This document shows, in pieces, positions 12,310 through 60,529 of a stretch of DNA of 64,000 nt (positions within the stretch are counted from its first letter, which is position 1; each line of letters begins with the position of its first letter). The notes beneath the pieces are model-generated. The model saw nothing but the letters and a program-made list of their open reading frames with translations, had not been told where the DNA came from and searched no databases. This stretch comes from an uncultured Candidatus Izemoplasmatales bacterium. Lineage in GTDB: Bacteria; Bacillota_I; Bacilli_A; MAG-NZ. The translations under genes were made by a program, and so were the position numbers. The stretch is from NCBI GenBank assembly GCA_964589075.1, contig CAZPQU010000004.1, positions 59,090-123,089 on the forward strand, given 5' to 3'.

Positions 12310-12321
12310 ATTTCACTTCTT

Positions 12322-13720: not shown

Positions 13721-13752
13721 AAAAAAAGACCTCCAATTTGAGGGTCATAGAT

Positions 13753-13843: not shown

Positions 13844-13992
13844 CAAAAAAAAAATTCATTTTATTGAACTTTTTTTTGAAATATGTTTTCATATTATCAA
13901 CCAACAATTTTTGAACATTACAGTTTTAGCATCTAATACAAGATAATAAAGTGTCCAACAATTAGATTGCAACACAATTTATGACTAATTTA

Positions 13993-16213: not shown

Positions 16214-16290
16214 AATCTTTACGAGTGATATTCACTCTTCCTTTCACGTTTTTTTGGAGTTCAACAATGAGAATACTATTTTAGTTTATC

Positions 16291-16464: not shown

Positions 16465-16532
16465 AATATCCTCCTGAATTTTATGTATATTTGGATTACT
16501 GATAATCCATTGTATTCTCATTGTGAACCCTG

Positions 16533-20460: not shown

Positions 20461-20551
20461 GTTGAACATTAGTACCCACATACAATAGGCTAAGGTTTTC
20501 AAAGAACTACACCACTAATATATCAAATGAGGGGGACGTATTATGTCACAT
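20461..20551. repeat. 91-nt island repeat, copy 4
   Basis: 2 mismatches to the consensus. Confidence 0.9.
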
Positions 20552-20748
20552 CAGAAAAAAAGGATAAATTATCATCCTTTTTCAATTTGAACCTGCCCCT
20601 TAAAGTTTAAATACATAACAGAATTTTTCAATTAATTTGTACTGTGTCAAGGATACCTCGTTGTTTAATTCATACTTAAATCCATTTATATAAGTTACAT
20701 AATGTTATGCTTTTTTTCCTTAGTTTACTCTTCGAAGTAAACTTTACA

Positions 20749-21573
20749 TTATACAGCACCTTTTGAATGTGCAAACATGCAAACCTCAGAACTGGTAATA
20801 TACTTTCTTTCTAAAACATCAATATATTTGTTGTGTGATCTTACTATATGATTAACAAATTCTATCTCATTTCTAAACCCCTTAATCTTCAATAGAACTT
20901 GGTCAGATGATTTACCAGAATTTATGAACTCAGACACTACTTTCTCAAGAGCGATAAATTGTTTAGAAATAGTATTAAGTCTCATAAGATAGCTTTGTCT
21001 CCTAATCACTGTTATCAACCTATTTATGTTATTCAACTCTATTGAACTCTGAAAAACATTTAAGAACTCGTCTTCTTTGTAAGCAACCCCTAAATCATTA
21101 TATTTACTATTAAACCATTTATCCCTACAATCTACAATCTCGACTTTTGCTTTTTGCAAGAGTTGTAGCTCAGCAAAGTTTGTTCTCTCAAATAAAATAA
21201 AGTCGATTTTATTTAGTAGACATGTTACATGATTCCTTAAATCGTGGAATATATGTTCAAAATTGAATCTAACTCCTTCTAGCAGTTTCTCCGATTCAAA
21301 CACTGTAGAAATGATTGTCGAATACTCCTCACCCTTTTTTAACGAATGTTTGAATGAATACTTCAACTTCCTATATCTTGAGGCATCTGAAAAAACAAGT
21401 GAGGAAATTATTTTCATTTTTTTAATGTAAACACTAAAATTGTAAGGGCATAATATCACCCGACCCTTCATTGAAACTGTAAAAACATTCTCATAAAATT
21501 TTACGCCCTTTTTATCAATGTTATGACAGTTATTTTTACAATATGCTGTGTTGTTGAATGAAGTTTTTCTCAT
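20749..21573 (-). CDS. helical protein with a histidine-kinase H-box-like motif, no ATPase domain seen
   Basis: FEHIFHDLRNHVTCLL resembles a HisKA phospho-acceptor box. No N/G1/G2 boxes found. 4-nt ATGA overlap with the upstream receiver gene. Confidence 0.35.
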   Translation of the reverse strand: MRKTSFNNTAYCKNNCHNIDKKGVKFYENVFTVSMKGRVILCPYNFSVYIKKMKIISSLVFSDASRYRKLKYSFKHSLKKGEEYSTIISTVFESEKLLEGVRFNFEHIFHDLRNHVTCLLNKIDFILFERTNFAELQLLQKAKVEIVDCRDKWFNSKYNDLGVAYKEDEFLNVFQSSIELNNINRLITVIRRQSYLMRLNTISKQFIALEKVVSEFINSGKSSDQVLLKIKGFRNEIEFVNHIVRSHNKYIDVLERKYITSSEVCMFAHSKGAV

Positions 21574-22247
21574 TTCACTATTCCATTGACAAAACTGAAA
21601 ATCATACTTATTGCCCGACCCGCTTGAACCATCCTTCCAATATCTATACCACTCGTTTCAAACTGATTAGAATATCCACTAATACTTCTACAAAACAGAT
21701 CCTCTATTATAGCAATATCCTTATTCTTGACATTATCTTTCCTTAATTCGTTTTCTATTTTCTTCCATTGTATTACCGGGTTTTTGCTGTCACTGATGAG
21801 TTTGTCAAGTTCATTCGACAGTTCATTTCCAGACAGACCTTTTTGGATAAATCCATCTAATATCTCATAGTTTATACTGATATCAGATTCATTTATCCCT
21901 GTATATAGAACAACAATTTTATTACTATATTGCGATTTTAATTGTAAGGCTGCTTCGACTCCACCGTGCTTGCTGTCATCAGATACGTGGACTCCCTTTA
22001 TGTCGCATAATATAATATCATATACTTCATAAGTGCTAATATGCTTGAAGTTATCATCAACTACAACTTGACCATATCCTAGCCTATCGATGGAATTCCT
22101 GTCAAATCCCTCGTCATCAATTACACAAATACGGTACCTTTTTCTGTCCACAGCATTCTTTGAAAACATGTTTGAATACTTATGTCTATCTTCCTTTATT
22201 GACTTCAGTTTTTCAGTACTTAAGTAATTAGTCTTTTTTACAAACAT
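21570..22247 (-). CDS. receiver (REC) domain protein with a short helical C-terminal extension
   Basis: Receiver landmarks in order: ICVIDDE, DIILCDIKG, KIVVLYTG, GFIQKG. No recognisable DNA-binding output domain. Confidence 0.5.
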   Translation of the reverse strand: MFVKKTNYLSTEKLKSIKEDRHKYSNMFSKNAVDRKRYRICVIDDEGFDRNSIDRLGYGQVVVDDNFKHISTYEVYDIILCDIKGVHVSDDSKHGGVEAALQLKSQYSNKIVVLYTGINESDISINYEILDGFIQKGLSGNELSNELDKLISDSKNPVIQWKKIENELRKDNVKNKDIAIIEDLFCRSISGYSNQFETSGIDIGRMVQAGRAISMIFSFVNGIVK

Positions 22248-22402
22248 TATTTTGTCTCCCTACCATTTTCACTAATTATACACCATAATTACTTCAGTAA
22301 AAAGCGCATGAGTTTGATAATGGACTCATAGTGATACAAACTCGAACTAATTTACTTATTGATTTCCAGTGTAGTCAGATACTAAATAGACTGGTCCTAA
22401 GA

Positions 22403-22493
22403 GTTGAACATTAGTACCCACATACAATAGGCTAAGGTTTTCAAAGAACTACACCCCTAAGATATCAAATGAGGGGGACGTATTATGTCACAT
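22403..22493. repeat. 91-nt island repeat, copy 5
   Basis: Identical to the consensus. Confidence 0.9.
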
Positions 22494-22624
22494 TTAAAAA
22501 AAAGTCCAGTTTATCGAACTTTTTTTGATACATAGGATTTCAATTTTGTAATATTTAAAAGTATCAAAAGTGTAACATTTCAACAACTCCATATATGATA
22601 GACTTAGGTCAAGGAGGTGAAGGC

Positions 22625-22816
22625 ATGAGACTTATAGACACAACAGAAATGGACGGAACTAGAATTACAATTAACGCTGATAATATATCATTCATAAGAG
22701 GATATGAAACCTATACCAGAGTATTCCTCAATACCTCAGATGCAAATTACATTAACTTTATTGATGTTAATGATACATATGAAGTATTTCAAAATTTGTT
22801 GCAACAACTACAATAA
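22625..22816 (+). CDS. small protein (63 aa), FlbD/LytTR-like beta-rich pattern, function unknown
   Basis: AGGAGG RBS 7 nt upstream of the ATG at 22625. The only gene in its cassette, and on the opposite strand to most cargo. Confidence 0.4.
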   Translation: MRLIDTTEMDGTRITINADNISFIRGYETYTRVFLNTSDANYINFIDVNDTYEVFQNLLQQLQ

Positions 22817-22843
22817 AAAAGACCATTCTATTTGGTCACAGAA

Positions 22844-22934
22844 GTTGAACATTAGTACCCACATACAATAGGCTAAGGTTTTCAAAGAACTACACCCCTA
22901 AGATATCAAATGAGGGGGACGTATTATGTCACAT
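22844..22934. repeat. 91-nt island repeat, copy 6
   Basis: Identical to the consensus. Confidence 0.9.
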
Positions 22935-23030
22935 TAAAAAAAAAGTTCAGATTTTGAACTTTTTTTTAGCAGTTAAAATATAATCTCACTACCTTGTATC
23001 TCAAACTTATCGTCATTTTACAAGGGATAC

Positions 23031-24254
23031 TTAGTTACTTAGAACTTGGGTTAGATTTTTTAGTCTAGCTAGTACTTCATCATATGTAATGACTACCACG
23101 TCACTAAAACTGTTTCTAAATAGTTCAAAAGACTTCTCTCTGTCTATACCTACTATTTCATCTAATCTTCCAATAATTACATAAGCTATTGGTCTGTATG
23201 CTTTTGTTTGATAATCCGAATGAGTATTCCTAACCGGCAAATCAATTATAAAGTTAAACCTTTGTATGCATACTTGAGTGATTGAACCACTCAATTCATT
23301 ACTAGGTCCAAAGACTGTATCGGGTCTGTAGGCGTTAGTTTTCAGCAATGGAGTAGTAGGTTTCTTAATTTCAATCACGGATACAACTTGATCGTTCCAT
23401 TTTGCAATAAAATCCGTGAATGTACTTCCTTTTCCACTGATTTTTGTTCCACCAGTGAATCTATCTTCACCTATCATATGACAAGTAGTTGGAATTACAA
23501 GTGGTAACAGAAAGGAGTTGGTAGTAAAGAACTCCTGACATTCTGGTTCTGATGGACTCCCTCCTATTAAAGTTTCAAAATCCTCGATAGCTAACTCCAA
23601 TATTGATCTTCCAATTTTAGAGTTTAGCTCTTGAAGTTTCTCAATATCAAATTTTTCTAATAAAAGGTCAATATTATCTTTATTTTCCAAGTATGCTTTA
23701 ACAGATTCAGGAGACTCAGAAACCTTTAGTAGTATCTCTGGATTAATTAATTTCAGTGTAGCCGTTATGTCTTCAATATTGTCCCCAGATAGCAAATCAA
23801 TCAAGTCATTTAGTTCTGTTTTTTTTGCAAATCTAAGCACTTTATTTACTAATTCCTTATCCTTCTCAATATTGGAGTTAAACAACAAATGTTGCTCTCT
23901 TAAAAAATAGTAATCATTATTTCCAAAAGATAAATCTGCATCTTCATACATTTTCTTAAGTTCACCTGATATGCTTATTAATTCAAAAAGGTCATCTCTA
24001 CTCAAGTCAACTTTAGTCCACTCCCCAGCTTTTAAGTTATTAAGAGAAATAGAGTCTTGGTCGCTCCAATCCTCACTGGTCTTCTTTTTTTGGTAAATCA
24101 ATTTCCCTGAAACTATTTTCTCCGGGTTAGAACTTGCTCTAACTAATTTAGGATAATAAACTAATCTTCCGGTTTTGTTACTTCTTAGTACGACACCAGT
24201 ACATTTTGAGGTCGCCCTCGAATCACTCATTACGTTTATAGATATTAATTGCAT
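23031..24254 (-). CDS. Shedu-like defence nuclease (DUF4263-type PD-(D/E)xK C-terminal domain)
   Basis: C-terminal FTDFIAKWNDQVVSVIEIKKPTTPLL ... ELSGSITQV matches the D...E-x-K plus downstream Q pattern of SduA-type proteins. 407 aa is a typical length. Confidence 0.55.
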   Translation of the reverse strand: MQLISINVMSDSRATSKCTGVVLRSNKTGRLVYYPKLVRASSNPEKIVSGKLIYQKKKTSEDWSDQDSISLNNLKAGEWTKVDLSRDDLFELISISGELKKMYEDADLSFGNNDYYFLREQHLLFNSNIEKDKELVNKVLRFAKKTELNDLIDLLSGDNIEDITATLKLINPEILLKVSESPESVKAYLENKDNIDLLLEKFDIEKLQELNSKIGRSILELAIEDFETLIGGSPSEPECQEFFTTNSFLLPLVIPTTCHMIGEDRFTGGTKISGKGSTFTDFIAKWNDQVVSVIEIKKPTTPLLKTNAYRPDTVFGPSNELSGSITQVCIQRFNFIIDLPVRNTHSDYQTKAYRPIAYVIIGRLDEIVGIDREKSFELFRNSFSDVVVITYDEVLARLKNLTQVLSN

Positions 24255-24320
24255 ATTAAGCCTCCCTATTATACTTTCATGATCGCGTTTTGTTATATTA
24301 TATCATCTCATACTCAATAA

Positions 24321-24362
24321 TAAAGTCACATTTATTTCACCATTGTGTAAAATGGATATGGT
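24321..24362 (-). promoter_or_regulatory. TGTAAC/TGTGAC-type promoter-like module upstream of the Shedu-like gene
   Basis: Minus-sense CCATTTTACACAATGGTGAAATAAATGTGACTTTA aligns with the other cassette modules. Confidence 0.35.
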
Positions 24363-24421
24363 CACTTGTACATTATATAAATGTAAAGTAAACTTTAGGT
24401 ATAATTACAAAGGAGATTAAT

Positions 24422-24988
24422 ATGAAAAAAAGTAAAAGAAAAGGTGTTATTAAACAAGTAGTTCGGGATTTGACATATTCAATTGTGTCGTTTATGTATT
24501 TGATATTATCACTGCTTGCATTTTATCAGATTGGATTTACAATTAGTCTAATACTATTGGGTCTTTTTGCATTAGCAAGCATTCTTATGATGCTGAGTTT
24601 TTTTTTAGGAAATCAACCTTATAAAACATATCTTGCGACATTCATAGGCTCATTTTTCCTCTCTGTGGGTGTTTTCTTTAATATTGCTAAGTTAATCTCT
24701 ATGATAAACAATAAGTATCTCACTGAGATTCTAATAATGGGGACTATCCTAGTTATTGGTTATGCTCCCATATTAGTAAATCACATATTATTTAAAACTA
24801 GAAAAAGTTATGTCTCGAGATTATCAATGTATGTAATTGCATTAACAATGTTACTAATAGACTACTTCCTAACGGTATTTGAGGGAGGGACTTCCCCCTT
24901 ACAAAGTGCAGTATGGATTATACTTCTTGTTGACAATATAATTCAGTTGGTAATGAAAGAAGTATCGAACCGACTAGTGGAGGAATAG
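24422..24988 (+). CDS. membrane protein (5-6 TM), function unknown
   Basis: AGGAG RBS. 188 aa, strongly hydrophobic. Confidence 0.5.
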   Translation: MKKSKRKGVIKQVVRDLTYSIVSFMYLILSLLAFYQIGFTISLILLGLFALASILMMLSFFLGNQPYKTYLATFIGSFFLSVGVFFNIAKLISMINNKYLTEILIMGTILVIGYAPILVNHILFKTRKSYVSRLSMYVIALTMLLIDYFLTVFEGGTSPLQSAVWIILLVDNIIQLVMKEVSNRLVEE

Positions 24989-25070
24989 AGTGTTTCAACA
25001 TAAAAATTCAAAAATTGTAACTTTTAGAATGATTATAAAATGCTATTATAGATTAAGGAGGACTTTTTAA

Positions 25071-25292
25071 ATGAAAAAAAACGTCCATGTAACAAAGCAT
25101 CCCGAGGGATGGCAAAGTAAAAAGGCTGGTAACTCAAGAGCGTCTTCTGTACATTCTACCCAAGCTGAGGCTATAGCAAGAGGTAGAGAATTAGCGAAAG
25201 CAGAGCAATCAGAATTACTAATTCACGGCCGAGATGGCAAAATAAGAGAAAAAGATAGTCATGGACCTGACCCAAGAAGGATTAAAGGTTAA
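25071..25292 (+). CDS. DUF2188-like small protein
   Basis: Pattern VHVTKHPEGWQSKKAGNSRASSVHSTQAEAIARGRELA...LIHGRDGKIREKDSHGPDP. AGGAGG RBS. GC content is locally higher than the surroundings. Confidence 0.55.
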   Translation: MKKNVHVTKHPEGWQSKKAGNSRASSVHSTQAEAIARGRELAKAEQSELLIHGRDGKIREKDSHGPDPRRIKG

Positions 25293-25294
25293 AC

Positions 25295-26011
25295 ATGATA
25301 GCTATATTTCAGACGGCTACAATTATTTTTGTTTTTATACCTGGAATAATGAGATCATATATGTTCTCGACTTATTCTTCAAAAAAGAACCACAAGAATT
25401 CCTGGGATTATTTAAGTGAAATAATTTCATTCTCTACCCTTATTTATTCGATTTCATTTGTAATATTTATTATATATGATTTTATATTTTTCTCGAAGTT
25501 TAAAGGGCTGGACCTACTGGGACTTGCTTTAAGAGCTGAAGATAGTGATAAAATATTAATATCGATATTCACTTTATTAATAGTATCGTTTTTTGCCTTT
25601 ATTTGGATTACACTCGAACTCAAAAGAGAAAACTCGGGACAATCTGGACCAATGAGTAAGCTAACAAATAGTGAAAACACAATTAATAACACAACTCTTG
25701 AAACCTTCTTCGATTTACATGTAAAATATCGAAATAGAGAAATAGTAGATAAACTATCTTTCGTTCAAATTTTAGATTTAAAAGAAAGAATACTTTATGA
25801 GGGATTGATTAATTCCATTCCCCTAAGTGACCAGGATGAAAGATACGAGAGAACAATACCATTACTCCTTGAAAATACCTATGCTTACAAAATGAGTGAT
25901 GATTGCACAGAGATTACTGAAGACTTGTATGAATCTCAATATTTAACTTTAGGCTTTAACCCTGAACATATGACTATAAGAATAGAAGGAGAAAGTGACT
26001 TAGATGATTAA
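25295..26011 (+). CDS. membrane protein, function unknown
   Basis: 238 aa with 4 N-terminal TM helices and an acidic C-terminal domain. Starts 2 nt after the previous stop. Confidence 0.45.
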   Translation: MIAIFQTATIIFVFIPGIMRSYMFSTYSSKKNHKNSWDYLSEIISFSTLIYSISFVIFIIYDFIFFSKFKGLDLLGLALRAEDSDKILISIFTLLIVSFFAFIWITLELKRENSGQSGPMSKLTNSENTINNTTLETFFDLHVKYRNREIVDKLSFVQILDLKERILYEGLINSIPLSDQDERYERTIPLLLENTYAYKMSDDCTEITEDLYESQYLTLGFNPEHMTIRIEGESDLDD

Positions 26012-26162
26012 AAAAGAACATCCACAAAATCCCAACCCTAATAAGGGTAAAGATTCAAGCAAAAACAGTACAGTTACTCTTCACGATCACTCTGTAAAAC
26101 GCTCAAAAACTACACCTAGGAATACTCCAAACCCTAAACCACCAAAACGACCAAAGGGTTAG
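26004..26162 (+). CDS. possible small basic protein (52 aa), absent from the supplied ORF track
   Basis: ATG at 26004 overlaps the stop of the upstream gene, with GGAGAAAG upstream. Product is Lys/Pro/Asn-rich. Followed by the terminator at 26229. Confidence 0.3.
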   Translation: MIKKEHPQNPNPNKGKDSSKNSTVTLHDHSVKRSKTTPRNTPNPKPPKRPKG

Positions 26163-26228
26163 ATGTAGAATTTTAAAGGTTGTTATACTAAGAAAAAAAC
26201 AGACCAGTTTATGAAGTGAACCCCAAAA

Positions 26229-26261
26229 GGTAGACATATGAAAAAAGAGTCTACCTTTTTT
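26229..26261 (+). terminator. intrinsic terminator of the plus-strand operon 24422-26162
   Basis: ggtagac-N13-gtctacc followed by TTTTTT. Confidence 0.55.
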
Positions 26262-26403
26262 CGTTCTTCGTCTTGTTGTTTTGTAGAAATACATCCACTC
26301 ATGAACTTGATTTATGTATTCCTCTAGTGAAGTGATATTATTAATGTAGAGAGTTTCTTTACTTATAAGATTAAAAAAGACCCACTTTGCCGGGGTCATA
26401 GAA

Positions 26404-26494
26404 GTTGAACATTAGTACCCACATACAATAGGCTAAGGTTTTCAAAGAACTACACCCCTAAGATATCAAATGAGGGGGACGTATTATGTCACAT
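26404..26494. repeat. 91-nt island repeat, copy 7
   Basis: Identical to the consensus. Confidence 0.9.
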
Positions 26495-26655
26495 TAAAAA
26501 AAAAGATGAAATTTCATCTTTTTAAATTTATTCGTTTGTTGTTTATTTTGTATCCAGTACTTATCCTTAGTTACTTAGACAACGCAATGTCATCAACGAC
26601 ATATAATCCATTCACCCTAGTAACTTTTTTCAGAAATATCTATAACAACTCACAT

Positions 26656-27018
26656 TTACTCTTTAGCTTCGTTAGTATTACTCTTCATCATCTTTTTTTT
26701 TGTTTTTCTAAGTAGTTTCCTGGTGTGTCTATCTGCTGGAAATATACTGTCGTCAACAATAAAGTAGTGAGATTTACACTCAAAATAGAAGTTACCAACT
26801 GATGGCGTCAAGGATAAAGTCCCATCATAAATTAAACACCAATCATCTTTTCCCAGTATCATATACACTGTCTCTCCGCATCCACATGGGCATTTATGCA
26901 TCACAGCTCTGTTTTTGATCGATATATAAATTACTAAATCATCAACAGTCTCTAAGTTGTGAAATTCATTAACGAATTCAGTTTTAATTTTTATCATGAA
27001 TAAAGTCACCTTCCTCAA
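26656..27018 (-). CDS. small Cys/His-rich protein (DUF6527-like, putative zinc-binding)
   Basis: HKCPCGCGETVYM...W...LSLTPSVGN...CKSHYFIVDDSIF. Overlaps the end of the E1-like gene by 35 nt. Confidence 0.45.
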   Translation of the reverse strand: MRKVTLFMIKIKTEFVNEFHNLETVDDLVIYISIKNRAVMHKCPCGCGETVYMILGKDDWCLIYDGTLSLTPSVGNFYFECKSHYFIVDDSIFPADRHTRKLLRKTKKKMMKSNTNEAKE

Positions 27019-28240
27019 TCACAGTGGTAATGACATTACTTTCCTTAGAGTCATGATAAAAATCAATTGATTGTTTCCATCTAATTACAGCTTGACAAGC
27101 AATCAAGGAATTGATTTCTGCAATTTGAATGTTTGTGGAGTAATCATCATCTTCATTATCGTAAACAATATTTTTTTCGAGATGCTTATTCATGTTACCG
27201 TCAAAGTAAACTAAGCTGCACATAGCATACATCTTACCCTCTCCCAATCTTACGCTTATTCCACAATCAATAAATGGGATTTTCTGTTCAACTAGAAATT
27301 CGACTATTCTTTCTTTGTCTGTTCCTCCATCAATGCTTATAAATACGAAATCAAACCCTTTTATTTCATCTAAGTTAGATTCATCAACATTATAAGGATG
27401 TGGAATAACATCGTACCTAATAAACGAATATCTGCTTGCCTGAAGAGTGGCTTTATTAATTTTACTGTTAACCGTCTCTAATGATAGTGCACCTGGCGTT
27501 CTAAAGGCATTGTGTCCATTAAACTCGTCACCATCAAATAAATGAATTTCAGATACAGGAGTCCTAGCTAAAAAGTCGAGTATATAAGACCCAGTTCCTC
27601 CTACACCTATTAATGCAATTTTCATTTTTCTAAATTTGTTTGCAAGAGAATTAAGATGAAGACTACTGCTATCATCATCAGGATAAATAAAAACACCCTC
27701 AGTTTCTTGATTAAATTCTACTTGTTCTGATTTCTGCTTAAGATCATCCATTGATATTCCGTCACGATCCATTACAAAAAAAGCAGGATCACTGATGTAC
27801 TCATAATATTGAATTATTTTCTCATAATGGGAATTATAGTATTTACATTCTGGTACAGTTGACATTAAAAACTTTGTAGTAAGACCATTAGAATATGGGA
27901 ACTGTACTGCTCCTGGTTTGATTAAATCCTTTATTTCCTCACCATCTATCTCATGTGGAAATTCTCCATCAAAATAGACGGTATGTGAGTTTTGGGCAAC
28001 TGCAGGAGTCATTATTTTTGTGGTGGGGTGCTGGACCATAATGAATGCTGGGATCCCTCTCAAAATAAACGTTTCAATAATAAGGCCAAGTTTTATTGAA
28101 CCATCTTTGCAAATATATGGCACATTTGTGATTGCGATATTTTTATTTCTTAACAGTATTACATCACAACCACGTTCTGTGACCACCTTTAGCTCATTAT
28201 TAAGATCCTTTCGTGTTACCAATGCTAAATACCATGCCAT
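26984..28240 (-). CDS. ThiF/E1-like adenylyltransferase with an uncharacterised ~200-aa N-terminal domain (possible E2-like)
   Basis: Rossmann motif KIALIGVGGTGSYILDFLARTPVSEIHLFDGDEFNGHNAFR, then FVFISIDGGTDKERIVEFL...PFIDCG, as in ThiF/MoeB/E1 folds. Confidence 0.6.
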   Translation of the reverse strand: MAWYLALVTRKDLNNELKVVTERGCDVILLRNKNIAITNVPYICKDGSIKLGLIIETFILRGIPAFIMVQHPTTKIMTPAVAQNSHTVYFDGEFPHEIDGEEIKDLIKPGAVQFPYSNGLTTKFLMSTVPECKYYNSHYEKIIQYYEYISDPAFFVMDRDGISMDDLKQKSEQVEFNQETEGVFIYPDDDSSSLHLNSLANKFRKMKIALIGVGGTGSYILDFLARTPVSEIHLFDGDEFNGHNAFRTPGALSLETVNSKINKATLQASRYSFIRYDVIPHPYNVDESNLDEIKGFDFVFISIDGGTDKERIVEFLVEQKIPFIDCGISVRLGEGKMYAMCSLVYFDGNMNKHLEKNIVYDNEDDDYSTNIQIAEINSLIACQAVIRWKQSIDFYHDSKESNVITTVIEEGDFIHDKN

Positions 28241-28427
28241 CTACTGCATCTATGCAGTTTCCTTTCAATAACTTTGACCCTTGATAAGTAACAGTGTACT
28301 TCGGTTTTTCACCGGGACCTGTTTTCTTTCCAAATAATTTTACTACGTCTTTATAGCAAACTTCCTTTTTTTTATATGGAAAAGATTTTTTTCCAATAAA
28401 AATTGTTATCTCTTTTTCATTATTCAT
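28200..28427 (-). CDS. ubiquitin-like beta-grasp protein (single multiubiquitin-type domain)
   Basis: 75 aa. Alternating beta pattern ITIFIGKKSF...VCYKDVVKLFG...YTVTYQG...IDAVDGMVFSIGNTKGS. First gene of the operon. Confidence 0.45.
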   Translation of the reverse strand: MNNEKEITIFIGKKSFPYKKKEVCYKDVVKLFGKKTGPGEKPKYTVTYQGSKLLKGNCIDAVDGMVFSIGNTKGS

Positions 28428-28471
28428 TTTGTTACCTCCTTTTTCTATATTATATCACCTTCTATGCACTT

Positions 28472-28520
28472 GAAAAGTTACAAATTTTCTACTATTGTGT
28501 AAAGGATGTGGGGTTGAATA
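28472..28520 (-). promoter_or_regulatory. conserved cassette promoter-like module (TGTAAC module)
   Basis: Minus-sense CCTTTACACAATAGTAGAAAATTTGTAACTTTTCA. TTTACA-N17-TAACTT lies 45-90 nt upstream of the Ubl gene. Confidence 0.4.
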
Positions 28521-28551
28521 AAAAAAGACCTCTAATTTAGGGGTCATAGAA

Positions 28552-28642
28552 GTTGAACATTAGTACCTACATACAATAGGCTAAGGTTTTCAAAGAACTA
28601 CACCCCTAAGATATCAAATGAGGGGGACGTATTATGTTACAT
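28552..28642. repeat. 91-nt island repeat, copy 8
   Basis: 2 mismatches to the consensus. Confidence 0.9.
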
Positions 28643-28746
28643 TAAAAAAAAATCCCTTTTATCGGACTTTTTTTGATTCAGTTGATCTAAACTTCTTATA
28701 ATTAAAAGTTGACTAAAGTGTAACTTTTATAGCGAATTTCTCACCT

Positions 28747-30102
28747 TTAGAATCCCAGCCTTCGTGAATATCTTTCATATAAACTGAGCATTAAAATCTC
28801 TATTTCGGTCATCGGTACACCAATAATCTCTAGCATACATGCTGTATGCACTCTCCTCAATGTCAATACGTCTGCATAATCTATCGATGTAAAGTTCGTT
28901 TCAGAACCATGTGCAACATCATTTCTATTCTTTAGCACTCTTTGTACAATATCTTCAGGTTGCTTTTTGTTACCACGTAATCTCAGGTAGTATGAGAATT
29001 GCACACCATCCTTGAAAGAAACATTTAAGTATCTATTGAACATAAACTCGAGTTTAGTTCTAGTAGTCACTTTACTTATAGTACTAACAAGTTCAGCAAA
29101 ATCTTCTTTATATGTATCTCCATGTTCTTTTATTAGTGTTTTCTTTATCACTTTAATTTTTCCTAAATTTGAGTGACCCTTAAAGTGACCTTTGTCTATC
29201 TTCTTCTTCAATAGCTTGTATGAGTACTCAATTGCTGCAACAGCATTTAAAATATCAAATTTGCTATTACTCAACTCTTGGGATCTTACAATATAATCTA
29301 TGTCGACTTCCTTCTTATCTATTGCTTCAATCAAGTTACCGAACACATGCGAAATATCATCAAACATTAGTGAGTTAGAATAATTCTTATTATAAGTCCC
29401 TTCATCCCTAAAGTCTATCTCGCAAAATGTAGTTCCATAAACATACTCGTGACTCAGTACTATATATGATGCTTGGGTGAAATCATTCATCTTTCTTCTA
29501 AGTAAAAAACTAAAAACATAGTTTAGAAGACCTCTCAGGTAAACCATTTCATCGAATGAATTAATTTTCGAGAACTCAATATATGCTCTTGGTACCTCTT
29601 TATTATAATTGTTTTGGCTAGGAACATTACAATAGGAGATCCTCATAGTTGTTTCTATTTTCCCTAGATGTAGTTCATAGTTTTCTCCTATATGACATGC
29701 AAAAAGGTCTTCATCGACTTGTTGCATATTAAACAACTTTATTTTCTTTGGAGTTAAATAAAAGTCATCTAAAGCATCAGAGTAAAATCTCACCGCACCA
29801 GATTTATATAACTCGAAGGGATTGTTGTCTGAAGTAGCTTGCACTTTAAACGATGCATCGTAGGCTGATACTTTTTCATTAAAGAACCATTTCCCAATGC
29901 TACAATAACTAAAATAGTCTCTTTTATCTTCATCTAGTCTTACCCATTTGTGCGATATCAACCTTCTGAAATCCAGTTGATCCCCTAATTTTGGAAAATC
30001 ACCCTTTCTATCAAGCGTGAAATGAAGTTCATCTATATTGTAATAGTATCTACCCTTGTATCCTTCAAACTCGAACGGTCCACTCTTTGAAAAATTCTCC
30101 AT
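28747..30102 (-). CDS. HEPN-like (ApeA/Abi-type) protein, candidate abortive-infection effector
   Basis: C-terminal R-x4-H motif in VLKNRNDVAHGS. 451 aa, single-gene unit directly after repeat copy 8. Confidence 0.4.
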   Translation of the reverse strand: MENFSKSGPFEFEGYKGRYYYNIDELHFTLDRKGDFPKLGDQLDFRRLISHKWVRLDEDKRDYFSYCSIGKWFFNEKVSAYDASFKVQATSDNNPFELYKSGAVRFYSDALDDFYLTPKKIKLFNMQQVDEDLFACHIGENYELHLGKIETTMRISYCNVPSQNNYNKEVPRAYIEFSKINSFDEMVYLRGLLNYVFSFLLRRKMNDFTQASYIVLSHEYVYGTTFCEIDFRDEGTYNKNYSNSLMFDDISHVFGNLIEAIDKKEVDIDYIVRSQELSNSKFDILNAVAAIEYSYKLLKKKIDKGHFKGHSNLGKIKVIKKTLIKEHGDTYKEDFAELVSTISKVTTRTKLEFMFNRYLNVSFKDGVQFSYYLRLRGNKKQPEDIVQRVLKNRNDVAHGSETNFTSIDYADVLTLRRVHTACMLEIIGVPMTEIEILMLSLYERYSRRLGF

Positions 30103-49159: not shown

Positions 49160-49458
49160 ATTGTATTCCTCTTTCTATTTAATTTATAAATGGCTCTGGA
49201 GGACGCACCCTCTCCTCGACTGCTTGAAGATTTGAGAGTGCACCCACCAGAACCATTAAGGAAAAAGTGTGATGAATTTGCAGTCGAGTCTATTTGAAGG
49301 AGATATTTCTATGAAAAAATTACTCCAGGCATTGCACATGGTCACCTGCTGTTGCAGAGTGGCCAGATATGATATAATTGAACTGCGAGGCACAATTATA
49401 TATAAACGTTCTATTAGACTGCTCATGTGAGGGGTCTAATTTTGCGTTTAAGCATTAC

Positions 49459-49474
49459 AGGACTAATTAGACCT
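49459..49474. promoter_or_regulatory. operator-like palindrome AGGACTAATTAGACCT
   Basis: Imperfect 16-bp palindrome (AGGnCTAATTAGnCCT) in the divergent switch region. Confidence 0.45.
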
Positions 49475-49492
49475 ATAACAACACCATTATAT

Positions 49493-49508
49493 AGGACTAA
49501 ATAGCCCT
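49493..49508. promoter_or_regulatory. second operator-like site AGGACTAAATAGCCCT
   Basis: Related to the site at 49459-49474, 34 nt away. Ends 24 nt before the XRE start codon. Confidence 0.45.
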
Positions 49509-49531
49509 ATGTCAAATTTCGAGGTTATTTT

Positions 49532-49741
49532 ATGTATCTGAGTTCAAACATTAAGTACTTGAGAATAAAGAACAACATCCAGCAAAAGGATCTTGGTAAG
49601 GCAATTGGAATTACTGATCGACAAGTGCGACAGTATGAAAATGGCGAGCTCAAGAATCCTAATTTTGAGTTAGTAATCAAAATTGCTGACTATTTTCATG
49701 TTTCACTTGATGAACTTATTAGAGATAACTTAAACAGATAA
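49532..49741 (+). CDS. XRE-family HTH repressor (CI/Cro-like)
   Basis: IKYLRIKNNIQQKDLGKAIGITDRQVRQYENGE...LVIKIADYFHVSLDELI. Confidence 0.75.
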   Translation: MYLSSNIKYLRIKNNIQQKDLGKAIGITDRQVRQYENGELKNPNFELVIKIADYFHVSLDELIRDNLNR

Positions 49742-49768: not shown

Positions 49769-49996
49769 ATGGCTAGTAAACAAGTACAATATTTTATGGA
49801 TAACGTTAAATACCTTCAGTTGAACAGTAAGCTAAGTAGAGTAGTTTATTGTGATCAAGTGGGTATTAGCTTGTATCGATACGAGAAATTCATCTCCGGG
49901 GATTCAAGTGCTTTCCGAATGAGTGAGTTCGACTCAATATGCAACTATCATTCCATAAAGCATCACACAATCTTTATCGAAGGATTTTACAAGTAA
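49769..49996 (+). CDS. second small HTH-like protein
   Basis: AAAGGTGG RBS before the ATG at 49769. VKYLQLNSKLSRVVYCDQVGISLYRYEKF. Confidence 0.45.
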   Translation: MASKQVQYFMDNVKYLQLNSKLSRVVYCDQVGISLYRYEKFISGDSSAFRMSEFDSICNYHSIKHHTIFIEGFYK

Positions 49997-50156
49997 TTAA
50001 GATTGACTCGAGCTAGTCTATTGTTCAAACTAGCAAATGAGTCAAAGATCTATCTAGTGAGCTTCTGCTCTTTAGACTAAAATTAAATACATTCATTTTG
50101 TTCGTTACTGGCTATACCTTGGACTTCTCCATGGGCGATAACTGTAACGAACTTTT

Positions 50157-50184
50157 ATGTGACATAATACGTCTCTCTCATTTG
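50157..50184. repeat. inverted 28-nt fragment of the 91-nt island repeat in the integrase promoter/5' UTR
   Basis: atgtgacataatacgtctctctcatttg is the reverse complement of the repeat's 3' end, matching at 26 of 28 positions. Contains TGaCATAAT. Confidence 0.8.
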
Positions 50185-50212
50185 TTAGAATAGGAAATTG
50201 AGGAGTGATAAA

Positions 50213-51160
50213 ATGAATGACGTCAAAAAACTAATATCGCAGCTTATTGAAATGAACTGCGTTTCACTAAGCCTTACAGATATAAAAAGAATCTATCTTG
50301 CAAGAACCAAGGGACTTAACAGTCCTGGTACTTATGACAACTACCGCAGAAACCTAAATTATATTGTTGAGTACTTAACCTGGAAGAATGTTCTGACAAC
50401 TGATCAGATAACTTTTGAGAAGATATACTTGTATATCGACTTCGAGAGATCTAAAGGAAACAAGAACAATACCATTAGAGCTAGAATTGGAATACTGAAA
50501 CAAGCTCTCGAGTACAGTGAGAATAATGGATACATTTCTTCCAATGCTTTGAGGAAGTTTAAGCTACCTCCGAAGGATGATATTGAAACTAAGATAATTC
50601 CACAGGATATTATCAAGGATATCTTTGCCTACATGAACAATCTAGACAAACAAAAAAAGGTAAATTATCGCAATATTGCGGTAACCTACCTATTGTATGA
50701 TACTGGTATTCGATTTAATGAGATGCGTGAGCTAAGACTGAAGAATATCGACTTAGAAAACAGAGAAATATTTTTAACAAAGACTAAGAGTAAGAAATAT
50801 AGAACTGTGATCATGTCTGAATCGACTAAAGTTAAACTCATAGAATATATAGAATTCTGCAATGTAACTGATTACTTGTACGTAAATGTTGAAACTAATG
50901 AACGGATAAATAGAGTACACTATTATAAGTTCTTAGAACGAGTTAGAATCGCTCTGAGCATACCTAAGGATATCTCAATAAGTCCGCATAAGTATAGACA
51001 TACAATGGCTACAGTAAGCCTTAATAACGGTGCTAACATTGAATATGTTAGAAAGGTATTAGGTCATAGTAGCTTAATTATTACTCAGAAGTACTTGCAC
51101 TTAGATAAAACAGAAATAAAAAAGGTACACGATCGAACCTCTCCTATGAATTTCTTATAG
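50213..51160 (+). CDS. int: tyrosine recombinase / phage integrase
   Basis: AGGAG RBS. Catalytic residues in context: R172 (TGIRFNE), H264-x-x-R267 (HKYRHT), H290 (LGHSS), Y299 (TQKYLH). Confidence 0.85.
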   Translation: MNDVKKLISQLIEMNCVSLSLTDIKRIYLARTKGLNSPGTYDNYRRNLNYIVEYLTWKNVLTTDQITFEKIYLYIDFERSKGNKNNTIRARIGILKQALEYSENNGYISSNALRKFKLPPKDDIETKIIPQDIIKDIFAYMNNLDKQKKVNYRNIAVTYLLYDTGIRFNEMRELRLKNIDLENREIFLTKTKSKKYRTVIMSESTKVKLIEYIEFCNVTDYLYVNVETNERINRVHYYKFLERVRIALSIPKDISISPHKYRHTMATVSLNNGANIEYVRKVLGHSSLIITQKYLHLDKTEIKKVHDRTSPMNFL

Positions 51161-51228
51161 GATTTTGGGTTAAAAAGTGTAAAACTTTTGTTACCCAAAA
51201 CGGTTGAATGTCGCATACCTTAGCGTAA

Positions 51229-51256
51229 AATTTGGTGCGGATAACAGGAGTTGAAC
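51229..51256. repeat. tRNA-proximal att core
   Basis: 28 of 28 identity with 10667-10694. Covers CCA, the acceptor 3' strand and part of the T arm. Confidence 0.85.
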
Positions 51257-51315
51257 CTGCACCCCGAAGGACTAGAGCCTAAATCTAGCGCGTCTGCCAA
51301 TTCCGCCATATCCGC
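51233..51315 (-). tRNA. tRNA-Leu, anticodon UAG, class II with a long variable arm and encoded CCA
   Basis: Reverse complement GCGGATA-TG-GCG...CTAGA-TTTAGGC-TCTAG-TCCTTCGGGGTG-CAGG-TTCAACT-CCTG-T-TATCCGC-A-CCA folds as a cloverleaf. Confidence 0.85.
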
Positions 51316-56553: not shown

Positions 56554-56776
56554 GTACACATCATCCGTAATTAAACACTTTGATACTCAAAATAACTATT
56601 CTATTCCTTGTAATCTATACCTAACAGGAATATAATTAATTAAATAAATATTGGTAAACTCTAGGAAATTAGAGGACACAAAACTATAGGGACCTAGCCG
56701 AAAGGTGGTCAGCCAGTTGCATCTACATGTTGCCATTATTTTTTTGGTACTTTTTTTATTGAAAGTGGGGAAAAAT

Positions 56777-59700
56777 ATGAAAAAATTATTAGCAGTAATT
56801 ATAGTAGGAATACTACTAGCAATTATGCCTGTTAGTTCAATAGCATCTAGTGGGTTATTTTATCAATTCAAAGAAATAGAGGTGAATCAGGATCTCGGCT
56901 TTGTAACGATAAGACTTAACAATGTTCAAGCCAGCTTTTCTGAAGGAATTGAATATGAATTTATGCAAGTTTTAGATTGGCAGTTTAACGATGAAAACAG
57001 TGGAGTTCAAATCGTTCAAAGAACTGAAACAATCTATCATACTGAATGGCATCCGCTAGGAGATGAATTATCTATCTATGCCTGGCTAAGAGATACCGAA
57101 GCCTGGTCAAATTTCCAAGCACTGATTCCAGGTCAGGAACATCAAATAAATATAATCGTAAATGAGTACAGTGGGGTAACTCTAGTTAACAGTGGGGTTC
57201 AACCAGTTGTAACTTTGCCTGATCAAGACTTAGGAACACTTACTGAGAACGTTACATTTGGTGAACCTGAAATATCAGGAACAATAGAATATAACTATTA
57301 CTCTGACTCATCTGGTAATGTATTTGTTAAAGTATTATCAAATTCAGTGTATGACGTAAGTTATGTTCTAAATACAAATAGAGGCGATTCTCCTCAAATA
57401 GAATTAGTAGGGGATGATTACATTGAATTGTATGTTGGTGAAACATACACCGATTCTGGGGTTACAATTACCCATTACGGTAACAATGTTGCCTCAGGAC
57501 TTGTTAGAGAAGTTGAAGTTGACATTTATGACTGGAGTATCAACTCAGGTGTTGATGAAATAGACACCTCTAAACAAGGATATTATCAAATAGTTTATGA
57601 ACTAGTAGATGATTTTGGTTCAAAATCTAGAGAATATAGAACAGTTAATGTCTATCACAATCCAACTGAACCCGTAATTGAGGGTGAACTTAATGATTCA
57701 GGAATGGACATTATAGTAACAGGCGCAGATATAACTAGTGGATTCTTAAATATCCACTATGACATAACCGGAACTATATCGAATACAAATAAATCTAAAA
57801 TACAATTTAATTTCAGTATTGAAGGTAACGATACATGGCCCTGGATAAATGCTGAGAATGACGTAATTAATAGTTCAGGTGTAGTTTCATTTAATCTAGA
57901 CAATATAATACTAGATCCAAACGTACCAGCAATCAGTACTGTTTCATCTGGACTAATTGGTGCTTATATCTGGGAATATGATGCAACGTGGCAACATAAG
58001 GGAAGTTTATCCATTAATGAGTTCACAATACCAGTGGTAGAGACTTCTTATTCTGTTGGTGCATTAACATATACTTTAATGAATGATGAATTTGGAGCAC
58101 TAGCAATTAAAGTTGAAAATAGTGCTAACAATCCATCAGCTAAATACATTTGGGATTTACAACATTATTCAAATGGAAGTTTAGCTGATAACTTCTTAGA
58201 CGTAACAGTTGAGAAAGTTACAGTGAACAGAGACTTAGGTACTATCGACATAGAGTACTCACAAACAAATGACATTACCGAGTCTGGAAGTATGGAAATG
58301 AACCTTTATACTCATTTCCAAGCTAATGGTAAATCAAGTGATCAAAACGAATGGTTATACATAGCTGACCGCGGAGATTTCCAAACTTCGGGAGTATTCA
58401 GTTTACCACTTAAAAATGCAGTCCAATCTCAAAACATGAGCAGTGTATTTAACACTGTGACAGATTGGGACAGTGAACAAATACCAAATGGTGGTCCAAT
58501 AGGATTCAACCTTAGTAATTACAACAATACAGATTATTACTGGGAAAATTTGGGTTACTACAGCATTAATGCACTTCTTTATTCAAGTGACGTTTACTTG
58601 TTAGATTCTGGAGTGACAACAGTCGCAAGTGGCTTAACTGATTTCCAGTACCAAGTAGGGTCACTTACTTATACACTTGATATTGATTCAAATGGTATAT
58701 TAAACCTATTTGTTGAAAACAGCAATTACGTAGCTGATGATAAATTTGACCATTCAATTAGAAACGATTTCGATTGGTTAGATTTCGATACATTTGAATT
58801 TACAGCTATTAGAATAGTTGAAGACACATTAGAAATTGACTACTTATTTAATATAGATGAATCAATCGACTTAGATGAAGGAAGTTACAACTTAAATGTT
58901 TATACAGAACAGGAAGAGTGTTTTGACAATGAATGTATGCACATATCACTTTGGGGTTACAACTACCTAGGTGAAGTGTCAACAACATCAGGACTTAATG
59001 CTACTTCTGGAACATTGGTAATGAGAATGTCTGAATCAAATCTAACATCTTGGTACCAATACAATCTTGAAGCAATTAAAGACAGATTAGCTACTGATAT
59101 TAAAGTTGATTTAAGTTACTGGAACTCTGAAACATCAGATTATGGTTATGCTTCATTCAAACCAGAAATCAAATCAGGTATTTTAGATATTTCTGTTAAT
59201 TACGAATTAAAACCATACGAAACTGATGACAGAGTAGTTACATTTACGTGGAGTAAAGACGCAGAGGGATTACTTGAATTATCTTGGGTCAATGGATTCT
59301 ATGATTCAGAAGCTACACTATATGTTCCAACACCTGAAGAAGTTAACATAGTTAGCGTTAAACTAACTGAGAAAACAGTAGATAAAAGAGATCCAAGTAA
59401 AACAGAATCTGAAATAGATGAAGTCTTCACATACTACACAATATTAGTAGAACTTGAAGAAAGACTCTCAGGTGGTTTAAAACTAAACACTGATCCTGAT
59501 GATTATGAATCATGGGTTGGTTACGCTGAAGGTAAATACGGAGAGGTAAATTATTATCAATTATTCTATGGGGATGAACCTATAGTAGATCAGTTCTTAT
59601 ACTTAGAGCATTGGGGTAATGATGGAGTTAGGGAATATATCCCACTTATGTACTCTGGAGCAGATGTAGTATTCAAAAACAATGCTTATCAGGAGTTCAG

Positions 59701-60529
59701 TCCTATGATGCCAATGAAGGAACAGTTAATAAAAATATACGGGGATGAAAATGGATTCCTAAGAATCACAGCTGAGGAAATAGTATCTAAGGCATCAGTT
59801 ATCACAAGCTCTGGATCATTTGACATTAATCTTACTTGGCAAAGACTTGGAGACTTCGGTAACTTCACAATGGCTGACGATACTGGATCAGGAACAGAAA
59901 CAATGTACATGTATGGTAATTTCGGTACAATCATCGAAATAAGTGATGATGCTGGTGAAACTTGGGAAGTTATTGATGAGTTCAATTTCTACGATGCTGA
60001 GTTTTCTGATTCAGGATTAAGAGAAGCTTACATCCAAGAATATATGCAGTCAACGTACAAAATAACTGACGAAAATACTTCTGGAATATCTATACTACCT
60101 AACTCAAGTTATATTGTTAGAGTAAGAGTTAGTTCAGATTACAGAAATGATTCAACAGATGACAGATTAGCAAATGATGACCCTGATTCAATTAATTTCT
60201 CAGGAATCATGGAAGTTATTCTAGTAACATACGAAGAAATAGTATTACTTGAAACAGTTACCACAGGAGCATTCTTAACCGACATTGTAGTAGTTGATAC
60301 AGTTACGGAGGTTATTATAAAAGCAGATGGAACAGTAGCAATCGTTACTAAGACTGCTGAAGTAGAAATTTCAACTGAAGAGATACCATCTCAAGAAGAG
60401 GAAATGGATAACTCAACAGTTAACCAGGCAGATGAACAAAATAGTTCAATGAGTAATAGTGCCTTAACAGGTGCAACATCTGAAGAAGACAGCGCAAGCA
60501 ACGATGAAGTTACAATACCAGGTCAGTAG
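56777..60529 (+). CDS. very large secreted surface protein
   Basis: Start chosen at MKKLLAVIIVGILLA, which carries the signal peptide. 1250 aa. Acidic Ser/Glu-rich C-terminus. Confidence 0.6.
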   Translation: MKKLLAVIIVGILLAIMPVSSIASSGLFYQFKEIEVNQDLGFVTIRLNNVQASFSEGIEYEFMQVLDWQFNDENSGVQIVQRTETIYHTEWHPLGDELSIYAWLRDTEAWSNFQALIPGQEHQINIIVNEYSGVTLVNSGVQPVVTLPDQDLGTLTENVTFGEPEISGTIEYNYYSDSSGNVFVKVLSNSVYDVSYVLNTNRGDSPQIELVGDDYIELYVGETYTDSGVTITHYGNNVASGLVREVEVDIYDWSINSGVDEIDTSKQGYYQIVYELVDDFGSKSREYRTVNVYHNPTEPVIEGELNDSGMDIIVTGADITSGFLNIHYDITGTISNTNKSKIQFNFSIEGNDTWPWINAENDVINSSGVVSFNLDNIILDPNVPAISTVSSGLIGAYIWEYDATWQHKGSLSINEFTIPVVETSYSVGALTYTLMNDEFGALAIKVENSANNPSAKYIWDLQHYSNGSLADNFLDVTVEKVTVNRDLGTIDIEYSQTNDITESGSMEMNLYTHFQANGKSSDQNEWLYIADRGDFQTSGVFSLPLKNAVQSQNMSSVFNTVTDWDSEQIPNGGPIGFNLSNYNNTDYYWENLGYYSINALLYSSDVYLLDSGVTTVASGLTDFQYQVGSLTYTLDIDSNGILNLFVENSNYVADDKFDHSIRNDFDWLDFDTFEFTAIRIVEDTLEIDYLFNIDESIDLDEGSYNLNVYTEQEECFDNECMHISLWGYNYLGEVSTTSGLNATSGTLVMRMSESNLTSWYQYNLEAIKDRLATDIKVDLSYWNSETSDYGYASFKPEIKSGILDISVNYELKPYETDDRVVTFTWSKDAEGLLELSWVNGFYDSEATLYVPTPEEVNIVSVKLTEKTVDKRDPSKTESEIDEVFTYYTILVELEERLSGGLKLNTDPDDYESWVGYAEGKYGEVNYYQLFYGDEPIVDQFLYLEHWGNDGVREYIPLMYSGADVVFKNNAYQEFSPMMPMKEQLIKIYGDENGFLRITAEEIVSKASVITSSGSFDINLTWQRLGDFGNFTMADDTGSGTETMYMYGNFGTIIEISDDAGETWEVIDEFNFYDAEFSDSGLREAYIQEYMQSTYKITDENTSGISILPNSSYIVRVRVSSDYRNDSTDDRLANDDPDSINFSGIMEVILVTYEEIVLLETVTTGAFLTDIVVVDTVTEVIIKADGTVAIVTKTAEVEISTEEIPSQEEEMDNSTVNQADEQNSSMSNSALTGATSEEDSASNDEVTIPGQ

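Follow-up and report, generated by a model that had tools for sequence, protein, structure and literature searches.

Why does the promoter region of a tyrosine integrase gene carry, in inverted orientation, a piece of a repeat that forms an array about 21 kb away? The question is raised by a stretch of 64,000 nt (hereafter the window), in which an integrase gene, int, reads toward a tRNA-Leu gene, and eight near-identical 91-nt repeats lie at the far end of the same phage-like or ICE-like (integrative and conjugative element) module. Because an inverted copy of the repeat end stands in front of int, and because the same pairing is found with another sequence in a relative, the integrase and the repeats probably share a promoter or control site. 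Judged from sequence, we give about an even chance to the reading that one element-specific promoter/operator module serves int as well as the repeats, which form arms of the attachment (att) sites of the element.

The sequence in front of int genuinely corresponds, in inverted orientation, to the outer end found in all eight 91-nt repeats. The 28-mer CAAATGAGGGGGACGTATTATGTCACAT occurs eight times on the + strand of the window, with starts at 10751, 12468, 13816, 20524, 22466, 22907, 26467 and 28615 (seven exact copies, and the one at 28615 with one mismatch), and once on the - strand, at 50157-50184, with two mismatches that both fall within the G-run. The reverse-complement match of 26 out of 28 nt given in the preliminary description was thus borne out by the motif count against shuffles, for which the expectation was 0.00 matches (none in 100 shuffles). 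Gapped local alignment of the int side with the arm extended the match to 35 nt (50153-50187, 31/35 or 89% identity) with a score of 50, compared to shuffle scores of 18.8 ± 2.6 (maximum 29); in 2,848 real windows of 140 nt taken from this DNA, the highest score was 30. Ungapped extension gave 42 nt at 83%, and perfect identity between the int-side copy and the arm is limited to 17 nt. With these scores and the empty shuffles, a chance or low-complexity origin of the match was rejected as practically negligible. The whole 1.83-Mb genome holds nine copies of the element, none of them beyond the eight arms and the int site. A CTGTAAC motif was earlier placed at 50145-50151 in front of the copy; its actual site is 50142-50148, and it was rejected as a shared motif, its enrichment in the window being weak (14 copies versus 6.9 ± 2.5 expected, a number that 1/100 shuffles reaches).

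The nature of the repeats becomes clear from the tRNA-Leu gene, which begins 72 nt past the int stop codon. The 3' end of this gene together with 13 further nt (51220-51256) is repeated at 10658-10694 (92%, 37 nt), and both 37-nt copies end in the T-loop heptamer GTTGAAC, which at 10694 forms the first seven bases of repeat 1. Hence, the region from 10.66 to 51.25 kb represents one insertion in tRNA-Leu, and on sequence grounds the 91-nt repeat is the left (P') att arm of this 40.6-kb element, starting at the crossover. In repeats 2-8, (A)GTTGAAC is retained together with a left flank that is partly conserved, T[CA][AC][CT]A[GA]nAGTTGAAC, and there is no other tRNA sequence. The piece shared with int corresponds to positions 64-91 of the repeat, about 56-90 nt from the GTTGAAC crossover. 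Mostly minus-strand cargo and defence cassettes lie between the repeats, in units down to 0.4 kb, and their contents include a trypsin-like protease, a radical-SAM gene with two ABC genes, Shedu, a ThiF/DUF6791 system and a HEPN protein. The link between integrase and repeats that had been noticed at the outset is therefore real, because the tRNA-Leu element inserted by this integrase has these repeats as its att arm.

Int provided the single PF00589 match within the window and no serine recombinase was found in the whole genome, in agreement with the earlier statement that it is the only recombinase in the window. It is Xer-like by NCBIfam and scores under every NCBIfam cut-off. The SAM-like core-binding domain begins at residue 21 already, so that an arm-binding domain is missing, and no arm-DNA-binding Pfam family matched Int. 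Systems of the lambda type combine an N-terminal arm-binding domain with sites in both arms within ~150 bp of the crossover, and neither feature was found here, the int-side copy lying ~1.07 kb (about 1,066 bp) from the core at 51250-51256. The arm-type integrase sites proposed previously are thus unlikely, and, because the arm-binding domain is missing and the element is unlike the conserved core flanks, Int itself is unlikely to bind the element.

On the strand reading into int, the shared piece runs TTTT-ATGTGACATAAT-ACGTCTCTCTCATTTGTTA and contains a predicted TG-extended -10 (TG at -15/-14, A2 and T6 in the hexamer), which is present at int and in seven of the eight arms; in repeat 8, the TG-extension immediately before the hexamer differs at one position (GTAACATAAT). 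The preliminary description had assigned this extended -10 to int and all eight repeats, which holds for int and seven arms, and had placed it ~30 nt upstream of the ribosome-binding site (RBS), which fits the -10 hexamer (~32 nt) and not the end of the element (only 12 nt). Downstream of the -10, the shared piece continues for ~15-17 nt, over the would-be transcript start. TGnTATAAT is the usual motif before operons in the window (12227, 24305 and 28457 on the - strand; 4659 and 30672 on the + strand), the cassette operons included, and an extended -10 promoter is therefore a natural reading of the shared piece. The 15-mer GTGACATAATACGTC, exact or with one mismatch, was found only at the nine element sites within the window; one further match with at most three mismatches (5498) looks like chance, and no operator copies were found elsewhere in the window, for example at the XRE/early divergent promoter. 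In the arms, the promoter module occupies the minus strand directly behind a bidirectional intrinsic terminator and is aimed, over 60-90 nt, at the crossover, past which another hairpin and T-run follow, supplied by each cassette or, at repeat 1, by the displaced tRNA terminator. Some other candidate functions were rejected: a mini-ORF (open reading frame) with RBS on the repeat + strand (MSH and stop) and a 25-aa hydrophobic ORF on the - strand, both not conserved in the G006 or tRNA-Trp arms described below, as well as two RNA structures, a leader hairpin masking the RBS of int and a folded small RNA encoded in the arms, neither of which folds better than shuffles. The features are collected in Table 1.

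Table 1. Coordinates of the shared element, the integrase region and the att arms within the window.
Feature	Position	Strand	Remarks
Shared element, inverted copy of the att-arm outer end	50153-50187	+	TTTTATGTGACATAATACGTCTCTCTCATTTGTTA; 31/35 identity
TRTG/TG-extended -10, putative int promoter	50158-50168	+	TGTGACATAAT; hexamer CATAAT 50163-50168; without -35
13-bp near-palindrome, candidate operator overlapping the -10	50161-50173	.	GACATAATACGTC; 5/6 pairs
CTGTAAC motif	50142-50148	+	outside the shared element; 14 copies in the window
int RBS GAGGAG	50200-50205	+	7 nt before ATG at 50213
Tyrosine integrase, 315 aa, Xer-like two-domain	50213-51160	+	Pfam Phage_integrase 3.5e-31; SAM-like domain 21-117
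tRNA-Leu, integration target, attR side	51233-51315	-	ARAGORN and Rfam; T-loop crossover GTTGAAC 51250-51256
Displaced tRNA-Leu 3' fragment, attL	10658-10694	+	repeat 1 starts at its terminal GTTGAAC
Arm repeat 1, 91 nt	10688-10778	+	promoter copy on - strand, toward crossover
Arm repeat 2	12405-12495	+	28-mer copy
Arm repeat 3	13753-13843	+	28-mer copy
Arm repeat 4	20461-20551	+	28-mer copy
Arm repeat 5	22403-22493	+	28-mer copy
Arm repeat 6	22844-22934	+	28-mer copy
Arm repeat 7	26404-26494	+	28-mer copy
Arm repeat 8	28552-28642	+	one mismatch in the TG-extension (GTAACATAAT)
XRE/HTH_3 regulator	49532-49741	+	HTH_3 7.2e-17; conserved upstream neighbour of int in related elements
75-aa ORF between XRE and int, candidate accessory DNA-binding protein	49769-49996	+	no family match

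A comparison of the integrase upstream regions of homologous elements, which had been put forward as a check, revealed the same pairing of promoter and arm in an independent relative, the tRNA-Arg island of G006, a genome of the same family and another genus. Its int, 42% identical to the Int of the window, has an XRE gene upstream and tRNA-Arg downstream, and on the strand opposite int the island contains 16 copies of a ~92-nt repeat (C1:1,420,490-1,470,470) with spacings of 0.6-5.5 kb, except for one gap of 22.6 kb. The repeat consists of a terminator, then AAGGTGGAAAGCCAGTTTCCATGTCGTATGtTATAATG, then ~55 nt and then GTGTTTAGAG followed by AGTTCGAATC (T-loop core). Three of the 16 copies include a longer tRNA-Arg fragment, and the remaining copies hold just the T-loop core, as in the window. 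The G006 int promoter region reads AAGGTGGAAACTGGGCTTCCATGTCAATTTGTATAATG, which corresponds to the initial ~42 nt of the repeat in the orientation opposite to the array. Alignment of the 16 copies with the int upstream region gave scores of 25-53, 12 of them above the 99th percentile of a null made of real windows without repeat copies (mean 19.8, 99th percentile 29, maximum 41), and the alignment reaches into the stretch following the XRE stop codon. The cassette ORFs of the island are mostly co-oriented with the arm promoter. Several G006 copies also carry an inverted GTCGAAC and a T-run 30-45 nt beyond the core.

The sequence of the G006 pair is unrelated to that of the window pair, so that the two members are matched within an element and different between elements. 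It is thus well supported by these alignments that in two lineages with unrelated sequences the int promoter region is an inverted copy of the predicted arm promoter. Pairs that are matched within and different between elements are a standard computational sign of a specific protein-DNA interaction, and this pattern suggests that a protein specific to each element recognises the sequence in addition to RNA polymerase. The shared block of G006 comprises a -10 and the palindrome GGAAAnnnnnTTTCC at the -35 position, and that of the window a -10 and a downstream near-palindrome; the -10 is all that the two blocks share, and they are therefore probably promoters to which an operator is attached. 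At the level of sequence, it is hereby demonstrated that the two copies match and are arranged as described, that the repeats are att arms and that the design recurs in a second genus; from these points we infer promoter activity, a role for the arm promoter, protein binding and co-regulation.

The same comparison bears on the possibility that the match is a leftover of an old inverted duplication, which brought the arm promoter to int, or the int promoter to the arm, when the orientation of int changed, and that the copies are no longer functionally coupled. In the tRNA-Ser-type geometry of G006 (tRNA and then int, in the same direction), the arm promoter would come to lie sense-upstream of int in a circle or tandem, like Pcirc of ICEclc from Pseudomonas knackmussii B13, which is located at the element end opposite int and faces outward across att (PMC5812530). 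We infer that in relatives with int reading away from the tRNA, an arm promoter driving int in the circle would also offer an origin for such a duplication. The copies may, as suggested at the outset, derive from a duplicated int control region. Furthermore, the G006 tRNA-Arg alignment runs past the XRE stop codon, as a duplication would, and the tRNA-Trp element of the genome studied here has lost all similarity. However, the similarity is sharply bounded, with 35 nt at 89% in the window and ~42 nt in G006 and nothing on either side, and the match within the pair has been preserved in each of two lineages whose sequences are unrelated, which would be difficult to account for unless there was constraint or the duplication arose independently more than once. 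We therefore find a mere leftover unlikely.

Other members of the integrase family are few. The closest homologue of Int among 5.8 billion proteins is 44-45% identical and named 'Mycoplasmatota bacterium', with none above 45%; a scan of genome contigs for int relatives gave only matches of 25-26% identity, and a degenerate 27-mer of the element had no exact match in viral and metagenome contigs. Among 399 scored genomes of the class, the family was found outside the genome itself only in G005, G006 and G049, and all members adjoin tRNA or tmRNA genes. Six arm types were examined, namely those of the window, the G005 tmRNA, the G006 tRNA-Arg, two G006 tRNA-Ser elements and the tRNA-Trp element of the genome itself. 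All six have a crossover-directed TATAAT-type -10 directly behind a terminator, with an exact TGnTATAAT in four, compared to a background density of 0.12-0.21 per strand-kb, and it is thus well supported by these sequences that the arms of this element family carry a predicted promoter aimed at the crossover. The two G006 tRNA-Ser-type arms read TGTGATATAAT and TGCTATAAT, and the former, followed by GCGT, matches the window module at 14/16 positions (p ~0.02-0.04). The arm of the tRNA-Trp element (C4:149971) likewise has TATAAT behind its terminator.

In G005, 8-9 copies of a 34-nt tmRNA 3' fragment with a ~92-nt arm are spaced 0.6-12 kb apart (C1:1514276-1558867). Compared to the window arm only the outer ~48 nt are conserved, with AATGTGACATA matching at 11/11 positions, a score that 2/1000 shuffles reach. 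The G005 integrases are 5'-truncated beside an insertion sequence-like transposase or contain a stop codon. Partial arm copies were also seen at 860581, 1521369 and 1617354. The G049 int upstream region shares AATGTGACA with the window at a score expected by chance (413/1000 shuffles) and was not used.

Several further observations were made on these relatives. A tRNA-Trp 3' fragment with arm in the genome itself (C4:149946-150125) pairs with an int/tRNA-Trp junction at the start of C3 (4884-5822), so that another member of the family extends across a contig break. At G049:C1:964345-967171, two identical integrase genes that target tmRNA are arranged in tandem at a distance of 1.9 kb, and the inner unit contains little beyond arm, int and att and represents a minimal element. 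A motif CTTTGAAAA(C) is found between promoter and crossover in four arm types, those of the window (22880-22892), G006, the genome's own C4:150010-150025 and G049, where it stands in the arm beside the core; the C-terminal end of the XRE proteins that precede related integrases is encoded by a similar word, GGTTTTCAAAGATC. In X2, a sequencing run of a subsurface metagenome from an unrelated sample, an int and tRNA-Leu region ~97% identical to that of the window was present at ~3.5x depth (50477-50859 and 51120-51500), with contigs that break or diverge at 51120-51131. The arm repeat was not seen in X2 at a likeness of at least 85%, though eight copies should be well covered.

Returning to the shared promoter/operator module, the 35-nt element would constitute the int promoter core, with a TG-extended -10, the first ~15 transcribed bases and an overlapping operator-like near-palindrome. 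The inverted module would form the outer end of the left att arm (P'), behind a terminator and pointing at GTTGAAC, and would have been multiplied with the arm along with every cassette, giving eight copies in addition to the one at int. RNA polymerase and one element-specific DNA-binding protein may then act jointly on int and all arms, and integrase synthesis would be tied to the transcription of the recombination arms or to their occupancy. The arm promoter of this element is predicted to give an RNA of ~110-130 nt that passes over the crossover and ends at the next terminator. The likeliest binder would be a small regulator encoded just upstream of int, for which the conserved XRE gene and the 75-aa ORF at 49769-49996 are equally good candidates. 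Two XRE proteins had been proposed here, and this is correct for 49532-49741, which matches an HTH family, and not for the 75-aa ORF, which has no match. Homologous XRE genes of 68-70 aa lie directly upstream of int in the G006 tRNA-Arg element and in the genome's own tRNA-Ser element.

Several observations weigh against such a module. The hexamer is CATAAT instead of TATAAT and has no -35, and a consensus promoter scan requiring a -35 does not list 50158-50168. The bases 6-8 nt past the -10 are all pyrimidines, which is unusual for a start site; 50172-50179 reads TCTCTCTC at int and TCCCCCTC in the arms, so that a purine start 6-8 nt after the -10 is absent and the nearest downstream purines are at +3 and +12. 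None of the RNA-seq runs searched holds the repeat, and the predicted leader RNAs fold like shuffles (z -0.6 to +0.6). In the excised circle, the arm promoter would read antisense into int, a role that is not obvious. The operator motifs at the XRE divergent promoter (TTAGAC/GTCTAA) are unlike the shared element, and the arm of the genome's own tRNA-Trp element (C4:149971) shows no similarity to the corresponding int promoter (C3). Finally, AATGTGACATA is not a -10 in G005, where a perfect TGGTATAAT lies ~20 nt further in, and part of the conserved stretch may therefore be a binding site and not the promoter itself.

This last observation leads to an alternative in which the element is mainly a binding site for recombination proteins, such as an excisionase-like factor or Int, that serves intasome assembly in the arm and has a second copy at the int promoter. 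The recombination proteins would then repress int, a negative autoregulation of the KplE1 type reached through a copied arm site and not through an overlap with attL. In KplE1 (CPS-53), attL overlaps the intS promoter, which is repressed by IntS and the recombination directionality factor (RDF) TorI, and the int promoter of many tRNA-associated prophages likewise overlaps attL and is repressed by Int and an RDF (PMC2951348). In line with this, the conserved part in the window extends 17 nt past the -10 and has a near-palindrome, AATGTGACATA is kept in the G005 arm without being a -10, and the G006 shared block contains the palindrome GGAAAnnnnnTTTCC at the -35 position. On the other hand, Int is without an arm-binding domain, the element is not similar to the conserved crossover flanks, the int-side copy is ~1.07 kb off the crossover, and family searches recognised no excisionase-family protein. 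We regard this alternative as possible but doubtful; it overlaps largely with the shared promoter/operator module, the difference being which protein binds and what for.

Inverted copies with a tyrosine recombinase beside one of them have a geometry that would also fit crossover sites for inverting the 21-39 kb between arm and int promoter, as in a shufflon or an invertible-promoter switch. However, the element is without the GTTGAAC core and its flanks, its perfect identity spans only 17 nt, and no contig of the source metagenome joins the arm to the inverted int flank at 90% likeness, although contigs hide rare variants; we thus consider inversion very improbable. At 85% likeness, an apparent inversion junction (a loose end at 26498 continuing into the reverse complement of the int flank) and an apparent empty attB (a loose end at 10694 continuing into tRNA-Leu) were noticed and rejected when they vanished at 90%. 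Both loose ends were a single 3,564-nt int contig that aligned via 42-nt and 37-nt similarities and was clean at 90%. No excision junctions of cassette units were found among the source-run contigs. The source run (X1) contained two contigs, of 1,473 and 2,021 nt, with the repeat at both ends, which are absent from the assembled genome. Their depths (31.7 and 41.1) are like that of the array at 10400-29400 of the window, and they could represent additional or alternative cassettes in the population; in one of them, two changes in the repeat (13835 A>C, 13836 T>A) would abolish the -10.

Compared to known systems, the locus resembles ICEclc in having, in all six arm types, a predicted outward-facing promoter at the end opposite int, and in an att junction tied to integrase control. 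However, Pcirc of ICEclc is sense-upstream of int after circularisation, whereas the arm promoters of the window and of the G006 tRNA-Arg element would be convergent with int. Moreover, Pcirc and Pint differ from each other in ICEclc, whereas the arm promoter of the window is a sequence copy of the int promoter, present eight times. As in KplE1, a recombination-arm sequence coincides with the integrase promoter of a tRNA-associated element, which predicts autoregulation by recombination proteins. In contrast to KplE1, there is no physical overlap with att: since int reads toward the tRNA, its promoter stands at the gene end away from the tRNA, at a distance of ~1.07 kb from the crossover, as a 35-nt inverted copy of the opposite arm. 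Int of the window also differs from the KplE1 integrase in being without an arm-binding domain.

Tandem accretion of integrative elements and int-less CIMEs (cis-mobilizable elements) is known from the ICESt1/ICESt3 family (PMC5704250), and repeated att-bounded units by tRNA or tmRNA genes from the tycheposon islands of Prochlorococcus (10.1101/2020.12.28.424599). The window is similar in that att-bounded units, most of them int-less, lie beside a tRNA or tmRNA with one integrase at the tRNA-proximal end; as in G005 and G006, the repeated units share their crossover with the tRNA target, and one integrase serves the set. In CIMEs and tycheposons, however, the repeated unit is a tRNA-derived identity segment, whereas the window and most G006 copies keep only 8-11 nt of the T-loop and repeat a ~90-nt arm with a predicted promoter.

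The layout further recalls chromosomal integrons (IntI, attI, Pc, attC/Vibrio cholerae repeats), with one tyrosine recombinase, co-oriented cassettes, near-identical repeats of ~100 nt, a promoter linked to the recombination platform and cargo that includes defence genes. Unlike in integrons, Int is not an IntI (63.6 bits against TIGR02249 with a cut-off of 265, and 41.9 against PRK15417 with a cut-off of 435), the repeats are not folded hairpins such as attC (z about -0.4 to -0.6), the array does not adjoin int, and each junction has its own predicted promoter and terminator instead of a single Pc.

Tandem att-bounded units beside a tRNA (PMC5704250; 10.1101/2020.12.28.424599) and att-linked int promoters (KplE1, ICEclc) are thus already known. 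We found no description of an int promoter/operator that is duplicated, inverted and placed in the opposite arm, nor of an arm that, instead of a tRNA segment, is repeated 8-16 times as cassette junction. This allows the speculation, which we rate as rather improbable, that marine wall-less Firmicutes relatives ('Mycoplasmatota bacterium' being the NCBI name of the G006 homologue) carry an integron-like platform whose arm junctions hold copies of the int promoter/operator, so that the array feeds back on int. On such a platform, an Xer-like integrase targeting the tRNA T-loop would build arrays of 8-16 cassettes with ~90-nt arm junctions, and the array might titrate a shared regulator, or transcription across the crossover might license recombination. 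If one protein reads all copies, cassette number and integrase amount would be coupled, which would provide a simple control circuit for an integron-like system carrying Shedu, a ubiquitin-like system and HEPN, and the window and G006 pairs would be two natural specificity variants.

Three minor observations concern other parts of the window. A ~30-nt motif, TTGAAAAGTTACAGATTTTTAACCAT(TGTATAAAG), is repeated at 12240-12265, 12320-12345, 13669-13694, 28470-28495 and 24323-24351, sites that lie at the right-hand ends of several cassettes and before the gene 24422-24988 on the + strand; it includes the reverse complement of CTGTAAC, and the G049 arm has a similar AGTTACAGATATTT. The divergent early/XRE promoter region at 49400-49531 contains three operator-like repeats (TTAGAC-N14-GTCTAA, GGACTAATTAGACC and GGACTAAATAGCC), which surround a perfect leftward promoter, TTGACA-18-TATAAT (49515-49486). 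Finally, a c-di-GMP-I riboswitch (56643-56724, 53.9 bits) is located upstream of a surface-protein ORF of 1,274 aa (56705-60529).

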